Positions 35,470 through 51,198 of a stretch of DNA of 64,000 bases are shown here, piece after piece. The notes beneath the pieces were generated by a model, which was given only the letters and a program-made list of their open reading frames with translations, did no database searches and had not been told where the DNA came from. This DNA comes from an uncultured Nitrososphaeraceae archaeon. GTDB lineage: Archaea; Thermoproteota; Nitrososphaeria; Nitrososphaerales; Nitrososphaeraceae. The position numbers and the translations under genes are program-made. The stretch's first letter is position 1, and every line of letters starts with the position of its first letter. The stretch lies in assembly GCA_963729045.1 (NCBI GenBank), contig CAVSMN010000014.1, positions 1 through 64,000 on the forward strand, read 5' to 3'.

Positions 35470-36943
35470 TTGAATGATGCTACTATGACCGGGAGAATTA
35501 CTGCTGAATCTGTCGATCGAGACTTTATGCAAATAAGGTATACTGATCTTATAGGCAAGTTTCTCGCAAAATATATTCAAATCGATAAAGAGTTAATTCA
35601 GGATGTTTTTAGAAAGGGGATAGGGTTGGATGGTTCTTCAGTAATTGGTTTTTCAACTATAGATGAGTCTGATATGATGCTGTTTCCTGATAGAAAAACA
35701 TTAAGAAAAATACCTTTGTCAAGCTATGAAATAATGACTGTTATTGCTGATGTTTACAATGGATTTGATCAAGGTAGATCTCGAAAAGATCCACGGAGCG
35801 TTTCGCAAACTCTTGAGGATCACCTTGCCGTGAGTCAGATTGCGTGTCAAGTAGGTGCTGAGGTTGAATGCTTTGTATTTGATCAAATAATCTTTGATAT
35901 GGAAAAGAATGACCCCGCAAGTAATAATGTAAATGGTCGGAATCGTGCAAAAGATGTTTCAATCCTATCTTCAGAACAATATGGAATTGGGAAATATCCT
36001 ATTCGTAAAAAATCTGGGTATGATGTTCCTACTTTTCAAGACTCTCTGATTGAATTTCGGTTTGAGGTAGCTAATATATTGAAACAATATTATGATATCA
36101 ATGTCACAAATATGAATCACGAAGTGGCTAGTAGTGGCCAAATTGAAATCAATTTTATGCATGATTACTTGACTCAATCCGCCGACAACGTTCAGATTTA
36201 TAAAGATGTAGTCAGAAATGTGGCAAAAAAATACAACAAGATTGCAAATTTCATGCCAAAACCAATTTTTGATCCTCTGAACAATGAAAATAGTGATAAT
36301 GGATCAGGTATGCACGTAAGCATAAGCTTATGGACAAAATCAGCAAATAAGAATGCCAATTTATTTTATGATGAGTCTGATGATTACGCCGAATTGAGCC
36401 AAACTGGGCGATACTTCATAGGCGGTATTTTAGATCATGCTAGATCATTATCTGCAATAGTAACTCCAACCGTAAATTCGTATAAAAGGATTATACCAGG
36501 ATTTGAGGCACCCGTCTATATTGCTTGGGCTAGGGGAAATAGATCTGCTGTAGTTAGACTCCCAGTCAACGAAAAAAAGAGTTCGAACTCAAAAAGAATT
36601 GAGTGACCGGGCACCCGATCCTTCCGCAAATCCCTATCTTGCTTTCTCTGCCATAGTTGCAGCAGGATTGGACGGAATAAATAGAAAAATTGAACCAGGG
36701 AACCCTGTTAGTGAGGACATTTACAAAATGTCTGACTCAAGGAGGAAGGATCTTGGAATAGGTGTTCTACCTGGTAGTTTGGAGGAAGCGTTATCTTCGT
36801 TGAAAAGTGATTCAAATTATCTAAACCTTTGTTTTCACCATGATTTAATCAGTACGTATTCGGATCTTAAAAATAAGGAAATAGTGGAAATAGGTAACGA
36901 TGAATCAGTCATAAATCAATTCATGTTTTACTATGATGTCTAA
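35470..36943 (+). CDS. glnA: glutamine synthetase type I; 1-nt insertion at ~36605
   Basis: DGSS, HEVA..GQIEI, ANFMPKP, NGSGMH, NSYKR..PGFEAP, NRSA; GAG T(G)AC CGG GCA CCC GAT restores RIEYRAPDPSANPYL. Confidence 0.93.
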
Positions 36944-44289: not shown

Positions 44290-45811
44290 TTAGTGAGATG
44301 GGGGTACATAATTCTTCAGGTCTTCACCATTGACAACATCTTCCTCAGGTGGTACATAGTCCACAACTCCATGTCGCTTGAATCCTGGATCCTTCTTCTG
44401 AGTAAGCAATGCTACGATTATGAAAAGAACAAACGATACTATGGGTGGTATAAAAGTATCTAATCCTGCATACTCTGGTGGGGTAGTATAATACAATACC
44501 AATCTTAGGGTGGACCCTACCACAATTGATGCGATTGCAGCCGGCCAGTTTGCCTTCTTCCAAAACAGACCTAATGTAAGTGGAGCCCATAACCCTGCAA
44601 ATACTATATCAAATGCAAGTATTAAATAAATTCCTGGACGAGGGATTGCTGCTCCGAGGAGAAGACCTGATAGCATTACTGGTATCGTTACACATCGAGT
44701 TAATATAAGCAACTTTTTATCCTCTATTCCGGCTTTTTTGAATAATGATCTAAGGATGTCTCTTTGAATCAAGTTTCTCGCTATAACACTTGAGATCGCA
44801 AGAAGACCACCGTTAGCAGTTGACATAGACGCGCCTAAAACTCCCATTAGTAAAGCAGCTCCTATTGGAAACGGAAGTAGGTTGATAGCAAGTAGAGGAT
44901 ACACTGTGTACGGATCTTCTATGTCTGGTAACATGTATAACGCAATTATTCCCATCATACTCGTAGGTACAATAATTGAAATTGTTAAAATTCCAGCCAT
45001 GAATGCACCTCTTCGAGCTGTCTTGCCATCTCTTGCTGAAAATACTCTTTCCATAAAATCAAGTGCTACTACATCACCAAGACCCAATGCTATAATTCCT
45101 GCCCAGTTTACCAAAGCCCCGTTTTTAGGATCGGTTAGACCGGACAAATCCAAATAGCTCTCTGGCGTGGCAGACAAGAATAGTTCCTAAATCCACTCCT
45201 CCAAATCCAAAGGCAAAATACAGAAATGCTGCCCAGAATGCTCCGATAGTTAAGTAAACCTGGAAAATATCTGTATACGCAGAAGAAAATAACCCTCCCG
45301 CAAACGTATATACCAATACCGCCAATGAAACAATTAGCATACCCCAGAAAAGTGGAATGTGCAAGACAGTTGACAGTATAAATCCCCCTGCTGCAAAATT
45401 CCCTGCAACTAATATTATGAAACTTAAAGACAAAAGTATGGATGACATTCCCTCTGCGCCAACACCATATCTTCTATAATAAAAATCTGGAAGGGTGAGC
45501 ATGGACATTTTGTTTACCCTTTTCGCATAGAAAATTCCTGTTATTATTAAACAAGATGCCAATCCAATTGGTATCGCAGCTCCAGCCCAAAAACCAAATT
45601 GATAAACAAGTGCCACGTTACCTAAGGAAGAGTTACCATCGATTGATTGAGCTGAAAGCATTGTTCCTACAAATATTAACGGTAGGCTCTTTCCTGCAAC
45701 CATGTATCTTTTGCTACTTTTTTTTACCATCATGGAAGTTAATACTCCCACAGACAGGACCAGCCCCATGAACGAGAGAACTGCTATACCATAAGCATCT
45801 ATGAAAACCAA
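44290..45811 (-). CDS. sodium:solute symporter (SSS family); 1-nt insertion at ~45178
   Basis: YMVAGKSL, TLPDFYYRRYG, YTFAGGLFSSAYTDIFQ, ERVFSAR, ASMSTANG, GLFWKKAN; two overlapping ORFs rejoin as GTILSATPE. Confidence 0.92.
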
Positions 45812-46157: not shown

Positions 46158-47276
46158 ATGGGAATGGAATTTTACGGAGATTCTTACAAGGGAAATGACG
46201 AACCTATTTTTGTTGGCATACCTACTTTTCTAAAACTACCTTATGTCAAAAAAAATGAAGAATTGCAAAAGATAAAGCCTGACATCGCAATAGTAGGAGA
46301 GCCTTTCGATTTTGGAACTACGATAAGACCTGGTTCTCGTTACGGCCCAAGAGCAATTAGAGCTGCATCTACTGTTCCTTCTCCACCTTATGAACATTTC
46401 AACATTGAAACTGGGGTCGACCCGTTTGGAGTCTTTAAAGCTGTTGACTACGGTGATGTCAATATCTCTCCTGGGGATGTCATTGAGTCTCATAGACGGA
46501 TGACTAATAAAGTTAAAGAAGTTCTCGATATAGATGCAATCCCAATAATTTTGGGCGGAGATCATTCAGTGACCTTTGCAAACGTTCGTGCACTTTCTAA
46601 AAAATATAAGAACATAGGAATGATCCATATTGATTGTCATGCTGATTGCGCACCACAAGGACTTTGTGGATTCAAATATGATCATGGAGCTCACATTAGA
46701 CGAATCATGGAATTGGGATGTCTTAAGGGAAAAAATTATACGCTTATAGGTCCTAGAGGTTATTGGCCAGGACCAGATCTGTACAAATGGATGGCCGACC
46801 AGGATTTTCAGTGGTTTACGATGCTTGATGTGGAGGAATTAGGTATTGATCAGATTGCCAAAGAGGCTGCGGATAGGGCAAACGACGATGTTGATGCTGT
46901 TTATGTTAGTTGGGATATCGACACTTTTGATCCTGCGTACGCACCAGGAACCGGTGAACCAGAGCCCAATGGTCTAACTTCAAGGGAAGGGATGAAGCTA
47001 ATGAGATTATTATCAACTTCATTTGATCCAGATAGATTTGCATTCGATCTTGTTGAGGTTTCCCCAACATATGATGTAAGTGACGTTAATTCTTATAACG
47101 GAGGTATTACATCTGGGCTCGCAAATCGTTTGATAGTTGAATTAATGGCAGGGTTATCCTTGACCAAAAAGGGCGAATCTGAAGGAAAGCCTGTACGACC
47201 CAAATTTTATCGTGGTAAGGGAAATACATACGATTTTGGAAACGGTCCTAAAGCAAAGATACCAAAAAGAAAGTAA
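46158..47276 (+). CDS. ureohydrolase (agmatinase/guanidinobutyrase/guanidinase superfamily)
   Basis: PTFLKLP, RPGSRYGPRAIR, GGDHS, HIDCHAD, SWDIDTFDP, PGTGEPE, DLVEVSP; all binuclear-metal ligands present. Confidence 0.93.
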   Translation: MGMEFYGDSYKGNDEPIFVGIPTFLKLPYVKKNEELQKIKPDIAIVGEPFDFGTTIRPGSRYGPRAIRAASTVPSPPYEHFNIETGVDPFGVFKAVDYGDVNISPGDVIESHRRMTNKVKEVLDIDAIPIILGGDHSVTFANVRALSKKYKNIGMIHIDCHADCAPQGLCGFKYDHGAHIRRIMELGCLKGKNYTLIGPRGYWPGPDLYKWMADQDFQWFTMLDVEELGIDQIAKEAADRANDDVDAVYVSWDIDTFDPAYAPGTGEPEPNGLTSREGMKLMRLLSTSFDPDRFAFDLVEVSPTYDVSDVNSYNGGITSGLANRLIVELMAGLSLTKKGESEGKPVRPKFYRGKGNTYDFGNGPKAKIPKRK

Positions 47277-47658
47277 TGCATCTAATCAGAGTACATTGCT
47301 TTTCTTCACATCAAACTATCCATCACAATATTTTTTTGAGAGATGAAATCGATGAAACTATATTTTTTAATACATTCAAGATTATTGAAACAAAAATCAA
47401 AAGGCAATTAAGAATCAATTTAAATGAATCGATGTGGTTTTATTGCGGATGTGTCTTAAATCAATTACACTTGGGTACTGCATATAGATGAAATCAGGAC
47501 AAATTTATCTAAGATACTAAGTGAAGAAATGGTTATGATAGGAGTAGTGGAGTTAATGAAAAAAATTGAAATTGAAATAAAAATTGTTACAGGATCACAT
47601 TATTTCCCATAATATAAGATTAAGATTAGTAAAGCCAATACGGATGAGTAAAAATTAA
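47276..47658 (+). CDS. stand-alone urease gamma subunit (UreA)-like protein; two 1-nt frameshifts (~47483, ~47605)
   Basis: Joined frames read KIKRQLRINLNESMWFYCGCVLNQLHLGTA-IDEIRTNLSKILSEEMVMIGVVELMKKIEIE...RLVKPI, aligning with UreA RLARGLKLNYPEA...G....L......L....VMEGVPEM...IQVE...VHNPI; ATG overlaps ureohydrolase stop (TAATG). Confidence 0.75.
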
Positions 47659-47799: not shown

Positions 47800-49506
47800 T
47801 TAATAATAATGGTGATGGGGTCTTTGTTGTTTGCCCAACCTATCAAAGTAATGATCATGTTTTTTGTCTCCACCAGCATGCGAATGCTCTGTCCCATCCT
47901 CATGGGTATGAGTGTTCATTAGTGGTTTTTTGATAATAATGTCGTCTATATTTATCAAAAGACGGCTTACTTCTACGGCTGTATTGAGCACTTGCTCCTT
48001 TACAATTGTAGGTTCGATCACATCCCAATCCAGTTGAGATATTTTTCTTTCGTCTGAATTTAGTCCAAACCATTTAACCTTTTTACTATCAAAATTCTGA
48101 GATAGATTTAGTCTAAGTTGAATAAAAGCATCCATCAAATTCAACCCTGAATTTTTTGCAAGAATTAATGGAATTTCTTCTAATGCTTCGGAGAATTTAA
48201 GTAAAACTATTTGCTCCGTTCCTTCAATCATGTTTGCTCTTTTTCTTACTTGTTGTGCCATTAATGCTTCACAAGACCCACCTCCAATGACAATGGATGG
48301 ATGTTGGACGAATCTACTTATACTGGTAATAGTACTTTGAATTGCACGATGATATTCATCTAGCATCATTTTTGAATTTGCTCTGATTAAAATTGAAACT
48401 GTTTTAGGATTTATACATCCTTCTACAAATATCATCTTATCGCTCCCTATTTTCTTCTCATATACATTTTTGGCATATCCTACATTACTTTGTATGTTTC
48501 TAACATCTAAATCCTTTATCAGTTTTCCGCCTGTAGCTTTCTCTAGCCAATGAAGATCATTCTCTTTTACTCTTTTGACTGACATTATTCCAAACTTGGC
48601 CAAAAGATCCTGTGCCACCAAGTCTATTCCTTTACGGTTTATTACTACATTTACACCACTATCGATTATTTTTTGTATTTTGTTTCTCGTGATGTGGTTT
48701 TCTTCAATCCTAAATAGATACATCTGTTCTGGACTGCTGATTGATAATTGAGATTCTGTTTTTGTCGACCTTGCCTGAAGGTCTTCGTCTAGTAAAAGGA
48801 TTCGTGCATTTTTGACAAATTTAGGCATGAGATCACTATCTATTGTTTTATCAATCAGTACTCCATCAATCAGAATACTCTCTGATAAATTACCAATTTT
48901 TTCCTCAATTTTTATGTCATCCGCCTCTAAAAGGTAGTTATTATTAGAATATACAGTATTAATCGCATTAACGGTAATTTCTAAAATATTATTTAATTCG
49001 GATTGTGGGTCAGAGGAAAGCCTGACTTTTGTTCCTAAACACGTCCGTGCGAGTTTCTCAATGATTGTCCTATCCTTGCTACTTACTTTTCTTGAGATAT
49101 TGTGCAAGGTCTCTAGGGAATATTTGAGCCCTTTATCATATCCGTTAACAATAGTAGCTGGATATATGTTCATCGCCAACATCTCTTGTGCCTTTTCCAA
49201 AAGAGTAGCCGCAATTATGGCAGTTGTTAGTGTTCCATCCCCTACTTCGTTATCCACTGTATTAGTGGCATCGATTATCACTTTAGCTGCGGGATGTTGA
49301 ACATCAATCTTACGGAGGAATGTGGCACCATCTTTTGTGCATGTCGATTCACCAATTATGTCAATATAGATCTTTTCATTTCCTAAAGGACCATAGCAGC
49401 TCTCAATTAGAGATTTTATCAGCCGAGCGGCATGAATGTTATAACTCCTTACTTCTTTGCCACTTGTTCGCTGTGTATCATCAGGGATTAGTTTAGCATA
49501 GGACAT
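47800..49506 (-). CDS. thermosome (group II chaperonin) subunit paralogue with His-rich C-terminal tail
   Basis: GPLG, TKDGAT, VQHPAAK, EVGDGT, GGGSCE, LEEIP, VIEP, NIDD; tail HTHEDGTEHSHAGGDKKHDH...PHHHYY. Confidence 0.95.
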   Translation of the reverse strand: MSYAKLIPDDTQRTSGKEVRSYNIHAARLIKSLIESCYGPLGNEKIYIDIIGESTCTKDGATFLRKIDVQHPAAKVIIDATNTVDNEVGDGTLTTAIIAATLLEKAQEMLAMNIYPATIVNGYDKGLKYSLETLHNISRKVSSKDRTIIEKLARTCLGTKVRLSSDPQSELNNILEITVNAINTVYSNNNYLLEADDIKIEEKIGNLSESILIDGVLIDKTIDSDLMPKFVKNARILLLDEDLQARSTKTESQLSISSPEQMYLFRIEENHITRNKIQKIIDSGVNVVINRKGIDLVAQDLLAKFGIMSVKRVKENDLHWLEKATGGKLIKDLDVRNIQSNVGYAKNVYEKKIGSDKMIFVEGCINPKTVSILIRANSKMMLDEYHRAIQSTITSISRFVQHPSIVIGGGSCEALMAQQVRKRANMIEGTEQIVLLKFSEALEEIPLILAKNSGLNLMDAFIQLRLNLSQNFDSKKVKWFGLNSDERKISQLDWDVIEPTIVKEQVLNTAVEVSRLLINIDDIIIKKPLMNTHTHEDGTEHSHAGGDKKHDHYFDRLGKQQRPHHHYY

Positions 49507-49981: not shown

Positions 49982-50441
49982 ATGCTATTTAAGAATATTT
50001 TACTAGCTTTCGATGGCTCAACATGCTTCGTCAAAAGCAGCAGAATATGCAATTTACTTGTGTAAATTAGAAGGGGCACCTCTTACATTCTTACACATCC
50101 TTGATAATATTAAGCAAGGCGGGGTCATAGGTCTAAGAGCACGATATGGTGATACTAATTTGATTGATGGATACAAAAGGGCAAGAAGGCAGGACGCAGA
50201 AAAATGGATAAAACCAATTCAAGAGAGAGCCACAACAGAGGGTATCAAGAGTACCATTGCTATTTTAGATGATGAAAAAAATTCTAAAGTAGAAACAATC
50301 GTTCAATTTATAGAAAAAAATAATATTGATCTAGTTATTATGGGTTCGAGAGGATTATCTAAATTTAAACAAATGTTAGTTGGAAGTATTGCATCAGGGA
50401 TAATTAGTCATTCCAAATGCCCTGTGTTGGTAATCCGATAA
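49982..50441 (+). CDS. universal stress protein; 1-nt insertion at ~50025
   Basis: ATG 49982 gives MLFKNILLAFDGSTC|SSKAAEYA; C-terminal MGSRG...GSIA...CPVLVIR. Confidence 0.92.
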
Positions 50442-50445
50442 CCAT

Positions 50446-51198
50446 CTACTTTTTTTTTAGATAGTTTAGGATTATTTCTTTTACAAAATCATTTACCTCA
50501 TGACCATTCTCTTTTGCCTTTTGCTCTAAAGAATTCCACAGGATTCTATCCTTTTCTTTGGAAGGATTAAAAACTAATCTTACTGTAAGTAGTCCTTTGG
50601 GAGCGCCTCTTTTTATCCCTAATCGGATGAGTTCTTCTTTCAATGCAGCAGGCTCGATATCTGCCAACTTTATCTGAACTTCAGATGGCTGTCTTGCTAT
50701 TTTTATGCCTTCATAAAGCGTAATTTCACCATTTTCTATTTTTTCCTGAATCTGATTTGGAAGGGTAAGAATGCTTAGCCATTCACTAATTGTGCTTTTC
50801 GGTAACCCGTATAAACGAGATACTCCTGTAATTCCAGACTTCGTCGATTCTACCAATTTTTTTACCATTCTTGCCTTTTCTAAAGGGGAGAGATCTTTTC
50901 TTATTAAATTTTCAAACAGAGAGGCTGCCTCTGCTTCTGCACCCTTTAATTTTGTAATAACTGCTGGAATTTCTTTCTCTCCTTTATTGTGGAGGGCTAA
51001 AAATCTTCTCCTTCCGATAAGTAACTTATATCTTTTAGTAAAATTATCAAATCGGACCACAACCGGTTGAAGTAATTCAAATTTTGCCAAATGTTCTTTC
51101 ATTAAGTTATCACTTGAATCTTTTCCAAATGAAAAATTCTTACGGACATTTTCATCTGCTACATCGATTAAATCAACCGGAATATTCTTGATTTTCAA
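50446..51198 (-). CDS. ParB/Spo0J-family protein (ParB-N CTPase domain + HTH + C-terminal dimerisation region)
   Basis: NVRK, LLQPVVVR, LIGRRRFLA, ENLIRKDLSPLEKA, HTH SRLYGLPKSTISEWL, LP..IQ..I..GEI. Confidence 0.9.
   Translation of the reverse strand: MKIKNIPVDLIDVADENVRKNFSFGKDSSDNLMKEHLAKFELLQPVVVRFDNFTKRYKLLIGRRRFLALHNKGEKEIPAVITKLKGAEAEAASLFENLIRKDLSPLEKARMVKKLVESTKSGITGVSRLYGLPKSTISEWLSILTLPNQIQEKIENGEITLYEGIKIARQPSEVQIKLADIEPAALKEELIRLGIKRGAPKGLLTVRLVFNPSKEKDRILWNSLEQKAKENGHEVNDFVKEIILNYLKKK

Follow-up and report, generated by a model that had tools for sequence, protein, structure and literature searches.

The closest described relatives of the system considered here are arginase-fold hydrolases and urease itself. 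GdmH (Synechocystis Sll1077, PDB 7esr/7oi1, and the comammox guanidinase) is a Ni-dependent arginase-fold enzyme with accessory proteins, and its product, urea, is released for urease, according to the parts of PMC11410670 that we drew on. The metformin hydrolase MfmAB (8snf, 8ryi) is a heteromeric, nickel-dependent ureohydrolase and sets a precedent for a second subunit. In ammonia-oxidising archaea, the text of PMC11131427, as far as covered, describes an SSS symporter that is clustered with an expressed and conserved "agmatinase (SpeB)", and the covered part of PMC8573960 lists agmatinase in polyamine synthesis. We analyzed a window of 64,000 nucleotides (positions 1 to 64,000 of contig CAVSMN010000014.1, assembly GCA_963729045.1) from an uncultured Nitrososphaeraceae archaeon; the window is AT-rich and archaeal (33.8% GC), and its close homologues carry source names that point to Candidatus Nitrosocosmicus. 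Between positions 46,158 and 47,658, the gene for an arginase-fold ureohydrolase is followed by a small gene that we call UreA-like. The UreA-like protein is a true homologue of UreA, the gamma subunit of urease, and represents an old and rapidly evolving UreA paralogue to which an N-terminal beta-hairpin has been added. The pair is a conserved operon across ammonia-oxidising archaea, composed of the ureohydrolase, the UreA-like gene, and often a NicO/NiCoT-like permease.

The urease gamma signal is weak on the window's own pieces of the gene, and it becomes solid only with intact relatives. When the pieces were compared to the urease gamma family (PF00547), the middle piece alone matched (E = 0.016, 16 bits; the cut-off is 23.9 bits), and in a search of the whole genome the UreA-like locus had E = 0.167. 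In contrast, six intact orthologues from congeners matched PF00547 with E = 7e-7 to 3e-3 (18-30 bits), and three of the six reached 23.9 bits or more. UreA-like proteins from other genera scored 23.7-51 bits, with 17 of 18 at or above the cut-off, along with all five from a second family, and the 110-amino-acid UreA-like protein of genome G349 scored 72.5 bits. A preliminary description of the window had claimed a stand-alone urease-gamma-like protein and had suggested comparing it to the hidden Markov model of this family. That comparison fell short for the window's own pieces and gave significant matches for the intact orthologues, and the claim itself agrees with these matches and with the profile and structure comparisons that follow.

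A profile built from 36 family members found UreA from K. aerogenes (1a5k_A) in the PDB with E = 4e-6. HHalign against seven true archaeal UreA proteins gave a probability of 98.4% (E = 7.4e-15) across 98 columns, at 17% identity. We also modeled the orthologue from G022 with AlphaFold2 (AF2; mean predicted local distance difference test score, or pLDDT, of 80.6). The ten best Foldseek matches of this model were all urease gamma, with a template-modeling (TM) score of about 0.72 on the target. VIA gave Z scores of 7.3-9.5 to 13 urease gamma chains (95-101 residues aligned, root-mean-square deviation 3.2-3.8), and the next match, which is unrelated, had a Z score of 4.3. The additional N-terminal beta-hairpin corresponds to residues 1-19 of the model and lies outside the range that aligned to urease gamma.

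The UreA-like proteins keep the INxNE and VMxGVPE motifs, which are conserved in true UreA. The sequence of the C-terminal hairpin and the EGARDG loop of UreA have been lost from the family, which has one nearly invariant Cys and no conserved His cluster. These are not canonical UreA proteins: their scores against the NCBIfam equivalogs for urease gamma were just 19-34 bits, versus cut-offs of 82-123 bits. A separate, true ureA of 100 amino acids is present in the same genome on another contig (C9), along with ureB and ureC. UreA-like proteins have 110-144 amino acids and are encoded behind an arginase-family gene; a few members are longer (156-215 amino acids), and their excess consists of low-complexity tails only. 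The ratio of nonsynonymous to synonymous substitution rates (dN/dS) for the UreA-like gene is 0.13-0.43 across seven pairs, which implies that it is a functional gene under selection. We are highly confident of the identity of the UreA-like protein together with its genomic pattern.

Among 301 genomes of the class, 81 contain the ureohydrolase (75-99% identity between orthologues), and 73 of those 81 contain the UreA-like gene as well. One genome has a UreA-like gene without a detected ureohydrolase (G414, a partial match). At all 32 inspected loci that bear the gene on a contig long enough to show its neighbor, the ureohydrolase comes first, with the UreA-like gene right behind it on the same strand. 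In other words, intact orthologues do adjoin ureohydrolases elsewhere; the preliminary description had named their absence, together with reads confirming both frameshifts, as a refutation of its proposal. We examined the junctions of 20 pairs: nine have an ATGA overlap, five have a one-base overlap of the TAATG or TGATG type, five have a gap of 6-16 nucleotides, and one has a gap of 82 nucleotides (L037, beside a truncated upstream open reading frame, or ORF). All five congeners have TAATG, TGATG or a similar junction, and 9 of the 15 pairs from other genera have ATGA. The genes overlap in 14 of the 20 pairs, in support of the translational coupling that had been proposed for the window.

Within the family, the UreA-like gene was found in 75 of 151 genomes and in 13 of 18 genera, in a tally that also counts matches to true ureA. 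(The unpublished genome G111 is counted in the tally of genomes, and G111 and G130 in the family-level tally for urease; none of our claims depends on these two genomes alone.) Among the 301 genomes of the class, it is also present in f13, which is a second large family with small genomes, and in f4. One search grouped the UreA-like family into 50 clusters at 90% identity, and we found 87 representatives at E ≤ 1e-10 among 1.84 billion proteins. All of the Atlas clusters belong to Nitrososphaerota and bear the name "urease subunit gamma family protein". One member (P0007), on a 113-kb contig, is labeled "Candidatus Saccharimonadales bacterium" by its source; this is probably a mis-binned archaeal contig.

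In the window, the 126-amino-acid UreA-like product is spread over three reading frames at 47276-47658 (+ strand). It begins within the stop codon of the ureohydrolase: TAA at 47274-47276 and the ATG from 47276 together form the sequence TAATG (47274-47278, + strand), as the preliminary description had it. From this ATG, translation with table 11 yields only an ORF of 71 amino acids (47276-47491). The locus has three open stretches that overlap each other (47252-47488, 47460-47609, and 47581-47655), and reading through the three pieces meets no further stops until the TAA at 47656-47658. The first piece (47276-47482, + strand; residues 1-69) includes the N-terminal beta-hairpin, helices 1-2, and the RINLNE motif; it is identical to the orthologue from the congener G022, which is intact and also has 126 amino acids, at 67 of 69 positions, and it aligns with the family profile over positions 1-71 or 1-73 (101.8-123.2 bits). 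The first extra base is at 47483 on the + strand (47481-47483 by the aligner), in GCATATAG. The second piece (47484-47589, + strand; residues 70-104) has the VMIGV.E motif, matches positions 53-90 of PF00547, and is identical to G022 at 28 of 35 positions. It is followed by the second extra base at 47590 (+ strand), in GTTACAGG. The third piece (47591-47658, + strand) has the C-terminal beta-hairpin and ends with ...VKPIRMSKN and the TAA stop, with 18 of 21 residues identical to G022. In total, 113 of 125 residues are identical, where this is a sum over the three pieces and the third piece was read by eye. The preliminary description had extended the 71-residue fragment to about 126 amino acids by two single-base shifts, and DNA alignments with congeners agree. 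Its position for the first shift (47483) is right; the second had been placed at 47605, and actually lies at about 47590, or 15 nucleotides upstream. Position 47605 falls within a stretch where both frames are open.

The ureohydrolase (46158-47276, + strand) has 372 amino acids, including a Lys/Pro-rich C-terminal tail. It is a GbuA/GdmH-like member of the arginase/ureohydrolase family, as it matches the family's profile (PF00491, E = 6e-79) and has the His and Asp ligands of the binuclear metal site. The GGDH, DxHxD, and DxD motifs are invariant across 78 sequences and align with the metal ligands of the guanidinase 9fek (ligand numbering from the portion of PMC11410670 covered). The best relatives in the PDB are the guanidinobutyrase 3nio, the guanidine hydrolase 7esr/7oi1, 9fek, 1gq6, 3nip, and the metformin hydrolase. 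By enzyme class, the closest solved structures include a guanidinobutyrase, the Ni-dependent guanidine hydrolase, a proclavaminate amidinohydrolase, a guanidinopropionase, and the metformin hydrolase. The ureohydrolase is under extreme constraint, with a dN/dS of 0.003-0.044.

This enzyme is not likely to be a housekeeping agmatinase, as it is present in only 81 of the 301 genomes, the genome has three other arginase-family paralogues (four in all), and it scores below the cut-offs of the SpeB equivalogs (157.4 vs. 174.3 bits for TIGR01230 and 200.5 vs. 302 bits for PRK02190). Specificity for guanidine is associated with T97 and W305 in the Synechocystis enzyme and with T105 and W313 in that of N. 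inopinata (PMC11410670, in the part covered). In HMMER alignments to 9fek and 7esr, the Thr is kept (GTTIRPG), and the position of the Trp has a Glu (PGTGEPEP). Since the Trp is replaced by Glu, free guanidine is an unlikely substrate, and we rejected the reading of the enzyme as a GdmH-type guanidine hydrolase. We infer that the substrate is probably a cationic, agmatine-like guanidino compound instead. In the f4 lineage (L062 994-2244 and L063 3024-4337), the C-terminal tail of the ureohydrolase is His-rich (...HIHSHKHGHHAHNH...), and the gene directly precedes the NicO-like gene and ureABC on the same strand. We also considered a 488-amino-acid ureohydrolase frame in G407 as a possible Rosetta-stone fusion, but it is an upstream extension from stop to stop and not a fusion.

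The ureohydrolase is found almost exclusively in genomes that encode urease: the urease alpha subunit was detected in 80 of the 81 genomes with the ureohydrolase and in 45 of the 220 others. (These are raw counts, and related genomes are not independent.) In the sole exception, G120, ureA and ureD are on the same contig. The preliminary description had called the arginase-fold enzyme unrelated; given this pattern, it is not unrelated to urea metabolism. For a time we viewed the 11 of 75 UreA-like-positive genomes that lack the N-terminal domain of UreC as evidence against a link to urease; we dropped this after retesting for ureD, ureA, and ureC. Among 10 UreC-negative genomes in the retest, seven show urease genes and have ureD (G083, G102, G131, G120, G055, G129, and G045). 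In G083, ureC is cut by the end of the contig, and ureD is present as well; G102 and G131 have a true ureA; and G055, G129, and G045 have ureD. The fragments of ureC or ureA in G083, G102, and G131 are at contig ends. The other three genomes in the retest, G093, G123, and G147, showed no urease gene (G124 was outside the retest). These results indicate that most of the UreC absences are due to fragmented assemblies.

The pair is also physically linked to urease and nickel genes in other genera. It is next to ureABC in L023, L024, L039, L040, and L063, and in the first four of these, ureABC lies just beyond a thermosome gene. Also beside the pair are ureG/ureD in L033, ureD in L049, and NikR in L040. 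The preliminary description's statement that the gene sits away from ureB and ureC holds in this genus, where ureABC is on C9, but not elsewhere, where the pair can be in or beside the urease cluster. A NicO/NiCoT-like permease is directly downstream of the pair in L033, L038, L039, L040, L045, L049, L050, L052, and L063, and a NicO-like permease is directly behind the ureohydrolase where the UreA-like gene is missing, too. In L045, L049, L050, L052, and L056-L063, the gene after the pair, or after the enzyme alone, encodes a membrane protein of 246-254 amino acids with the motif HAFEPDH (HX4DH, NiCoT-like), whose Pfam match is weak (NicO/DsbD_2, E = 1e-7 to 2e-4) or missing. In G349, the genes on one strand are, in order, the ureohydrolase, the 110-amino-acid UreA-like gene (without the N-terminal hairpin), a NicO-like gene, ureA, ureB, and ureC; G027 has this same gene order minus the UreA-like gene. 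The arrangement in G349 looks intermediate and suggests that the UreA-like gene may have arisen by duplication of ureA inside the urease operon.

Two other neighbors recur. A divergent gene for an SSS symporter, which belongs to the family of DUR3-type urea transporters, lies at 44290-45811 (- strand), and both of its halves match PF00474. It is split into ORFs of 228 and 295 amino acids by a 1-bp insertion at around 45177; in G004 it is intact with 512 amino acids. A divergent SSS symporter is also a neighbor in 11 of 18 loci from other genera. On the other side, a thermosome (group II chaperonin) paralogue at 47800-49506 (- strand; PF00118, E = 7e-128) is convergent with the pair, and a thermosome is a neighbor in 17 of the 18 loci. 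At 17 of 17 loci (L023-L040 and the window), this thermosome has a His-rich C-terminal tail, with 8-10 His in the last 45 residues and the pattern THTHxDGTxHSHxGG..HDHYFDxLGKxQRPxHHYY. The genome's three other chaperonin paralogues have no His in the tail. Helicobacter GroES is also His-rich, and by analogy, the His-tailed thermosome may be a nickel-binding chaperonin.

Several other genes near these clusters are worth recording. A very divergent chaperonin-like gene (24.6% identical to the window's thermosome) is beside the true ureABC (G000:C9:122809-124221), and a gene similar to UT-type urea transporters, apparently in two overlapping ORFs, is by the true urease operon (L001 2688-3297, on G000:C9). 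Genes for a universal stress protein and a ParB-like protein are near the block in the window (50013-51198) and in L029, L030, L034, L039, and L040.

Are the two frameshifts in the window errors or mutations? In alignments with three congeners across the locus (G022, G004, and G013, with 94%, 90%, and 89% DNA identity), the window has exactly two extra bases that are absent from all three, at about 47482/3 and 47590 (47481 and 47591 by blastn). We think it quite probable that both 1-bp insertions are assembly errors. On the syntenic contig of G004 (88-93% identical, depending on the segment), 10 of the 27 ORFs of at least 150 amino acids are broken in the window, mostly by 1-bp insertions (7 of 24 after dropping three overlapping shadow ORFs in a divergent stretch), while none of the window's 22 ORFs are broken in G004. 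Across 28746-64000 of the window, relative to G004:C35, there are numerous gene breaks that are private to this assembly, most of them 1-bp insertions, such as those at 36605, 38723, 45177, 54346, 55409, 57276, and 58317. Elsewhere in the genome, the essential genes for DNA polymerase B (PolB) and threonyl-tRNA synthetase (ThrRS) are split, and the estimated completeness is 87% despite there being only 22 contigs. The breaks across 28746-64000 point to an unpolished assembly of the long-read type.

In place of a read-level check, we compared the locus to soil contigs from four related runs; the best public run contains 0.43 of the sampled words. The first extra base is left out by all of the depth in X1 (121.3 + 44.9 of 166.1, from three contigs) and by the X13 contig. 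The second is left out by one X1 contig, by both X2 contigs, and by the X13 contig. (The X1 count at 47590 is from one contig, and the other X1 depth there is outside the contigs displayed.) One of the two X2 contigs places the difference at 47592; the other is a 93-nucleotide stretch with a single mismatch to the window. The X13 contig spans the whole stretch; X13 is an RNA library, and this is not evidence of transcription. The preliminary description had proposed a read-level check of these indels; what speaks against both extra bases here is contigs from related populations. At 47559-47566, within the UreA-like gene, three X1 contigs lack one base of a run of seven A's; in these related populations, either the frame is broken by natural variation or the contigs contain an error.

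Three points weigh against an artifact. Neither extra base is in a homopolymer; our comparison is with related populations (0.43 of words in the best run); and other members of the genus have lost the UreA-like gene, at 5 of 11 congener loci. The alternative is that the window's copy is a true and very recent pseudogene, with both insertions real, and that this strain is on the way to losing the gene, like several of its congeners before it. One of the congener loci has a transposase in place of the gene, and the one-base loss from the A7 run means that frame-breaking variants, or contig errors, do exist in this gene. Yet such a pseudogene would have acquired no additional stops while retaining 113 of 125 residues, it would sit in an assembly whose ORF breaks, mostly 1-bp insertions, are one-sided (10/27 vs. 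0/22) and in which PolB and ThrRS are also split, and the 93-nucleotide contig with one mismatch lacks the base at 47590. We consider a pseudogene to be unlikely, if at the upper end of our range only rather unlikely. The frameshifts do not seem to be biology. Indel errors hide many genes in this assembly, and its genes should be called with an annotation method that allows for frameshifts.

What does the UreA-like protein do? We tentatively propose, as the likeliest role even though it falls short of even chances, that it serves the ureohydrolase as a non-catalytic partner. The overlap of stop and start codons would tie production of the small protein to that of the enzyme, and the protein would act on the ureohydrolase oligomer much as UreA holds the alpha subunits of urease together. 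Isolated UreA forms trimers, which lie on the three-fold axis of urease; this matches the symmetry of arginase-fold enzymes, which assemble as trimers or hexamers. The duplicated UreA might have been co-opted to cap the trimer or to flag the enzyme to the nickel-insertion machinery or to urease; we hold this more specific proposal just as tentatively. The module would hydrolyze a guanidino compound (probably cationic and agmatine-like) to urea, and the ammonia that urease then releases would supply energy and nitrogen. Several observations do not sit well with a partner of the ureohydrolase. The gene is missing from 8 of the 81 genomes with the enzyme, although G395 keeps a remnant, and five congeners (G002, G010, G005, G019, and G016) lack it. 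(In one of these, at L012 (G005:C12) 658-1293, there are transposase-like ORFs between the thermosome and the ureohydrolase.) Judging by dN/dS, the UreA-like protein evolves 10-100 times faster than the enzyme does, which would be odd for an obligate subunit. When we compared the C-terminal tail of the enzyme with and without the UreA-like gene, we found no difference. The motifs that are kept, INxNE and VMxGVPE, are those of true UreA and would fit a partner on the urease side equally well, and adjacency and co-occurrence suit the other roles equally.

One such role is an adaptor for nickel maturation, in which the UreA-like protein would present a nickel-dependent ureohydrolase to UreD/F/G/E or aid in loading nickel, with the NicO-like permease supplying the metal. 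The permease with its HX4DH-type motif directly downstream in nine loci, NikR in L040, the His-rich tails of the neighboring thermosomes (17/17 loci) and of the f4 ureohydrolases, and the near-obligate co-occurrence with urease genes (including ureD in 7 of 10 genomes without detected UreC) would all fit. The enzyme's close relatives in the PDB are nickel enzymes, as described in the covered part of PMC11410670. However, the enzyme's own nickel dependence is putative, and the nickel genes might serve urease alone. The UreA-like protein has one nearly invariant Cys and no cluster of conserved His, and 8 of 81 genomes dispense with it. Metal binding by UreA is not known, nor is a role as the main docking site for UreD. 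We view this role as rather unlikely. Somewhat less likely still is the preliminary description's second idea, an adaptor for urease itself: the UreA-like protein would dock the ureohydrolase on urease, or replace some of the UreA, and urea would be channeled. This would make sense of the two retained motifs, the presence of urease in 80 of 81 genomes, and the five loci where the pair adjoins ureABC. But the protein retains neither the EGARDG loop of UreA nor the sequence of UreA's C-terminal hairpin and has gained a hairpin at the other end, the pair is unlinked to ureABC in this genus, and urea diffuses freely, which makes channeling unnecessary.

If the UreA-like protein is indeed a partner of the ureohydrolase, then this would be the first case of a heteromeric ureohydrolase that took a subunit from urease, an unusual recruitment of a structural subunit by an enzyme with a different fold, and the operon would be a nickel-linked module, specific to urease-positive ammonia-oxidising archaea, that converts a guanidino compound to urea and on to ammonia. 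Ammonia-oxidising archaea drive nitrification in soils and in the sea, and the use of organic nitrogen (urea, cyanate, and, in comammox bacteria, guanidine) is an active question. A highly conserved ureohydrolase that is tied to urease-encoding genomes, and that is nearly always accompanied by a UreA paralogue, defines a candidate module for feeding urease. It offers a handle on the range of guanidino compounds open to these archaea and on the maturation of their nickel enzymes besides urease. Also, naming the UreA-like proteins "urease subunit gamma" in databases leads to miscounts of urease genes.

A full-text literature search, with bioRxiv supplements and figure S11 of PMC11131427 outside its scope, found no description of the UreA-like gene. 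In the portion covered of the complexome supplement of PMC10030591, urease is mentioned five times and there are no rows for agmatinase or urease gamma. The near-constant placement of the UreA-like gene directly behind the ureohydrolase points to a partnership in urea and nickel metabolism that the literature searched does not describe. As in the archaeal urease clusters with SSS and UT transporters, an SSS symporter stands beside the ureohydrolase; in the text of PMC11131427 that was covered (figure S11 lies outside it), the UreA-like, NicO-like, and His-tailed thermosome genes are not mentioned.

Compared to urease gamma (PF00547; chain A of 1a5k from K. aerogenes), the UreA-like protein has about 98 homologous columns, the same alpha-beta fold, and the LN..E and VM.GVPE motifs. 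It differs in being only about 17% identical and fast-evolving, in having an extra N-terminal hairpin of about 20 residues, and in its gene being coupled to that of an arginase-fold enzyme instead of being encoded as the gamma subunit with ureB and ureC; each genome that we checked also has a canonical ureA of 100 amino acids. The enzyme is a close relative of GdmH (E = 4.4e-49) and shares its specificity Thr and its context of nickel genes. Unlike for GdmH, the Trp is Glu, no HypA/HypB-like genes or riboswitch were seen, and the place of the accessory gene is taken by a UreA paralogue, for which GdmH has no reported counterpart. MfmAB is also a relative of the enzyme (E = 1.8e-36), and its partner subunit is another arginase-fold protein, whereas the candidate partner here is UreA-like.

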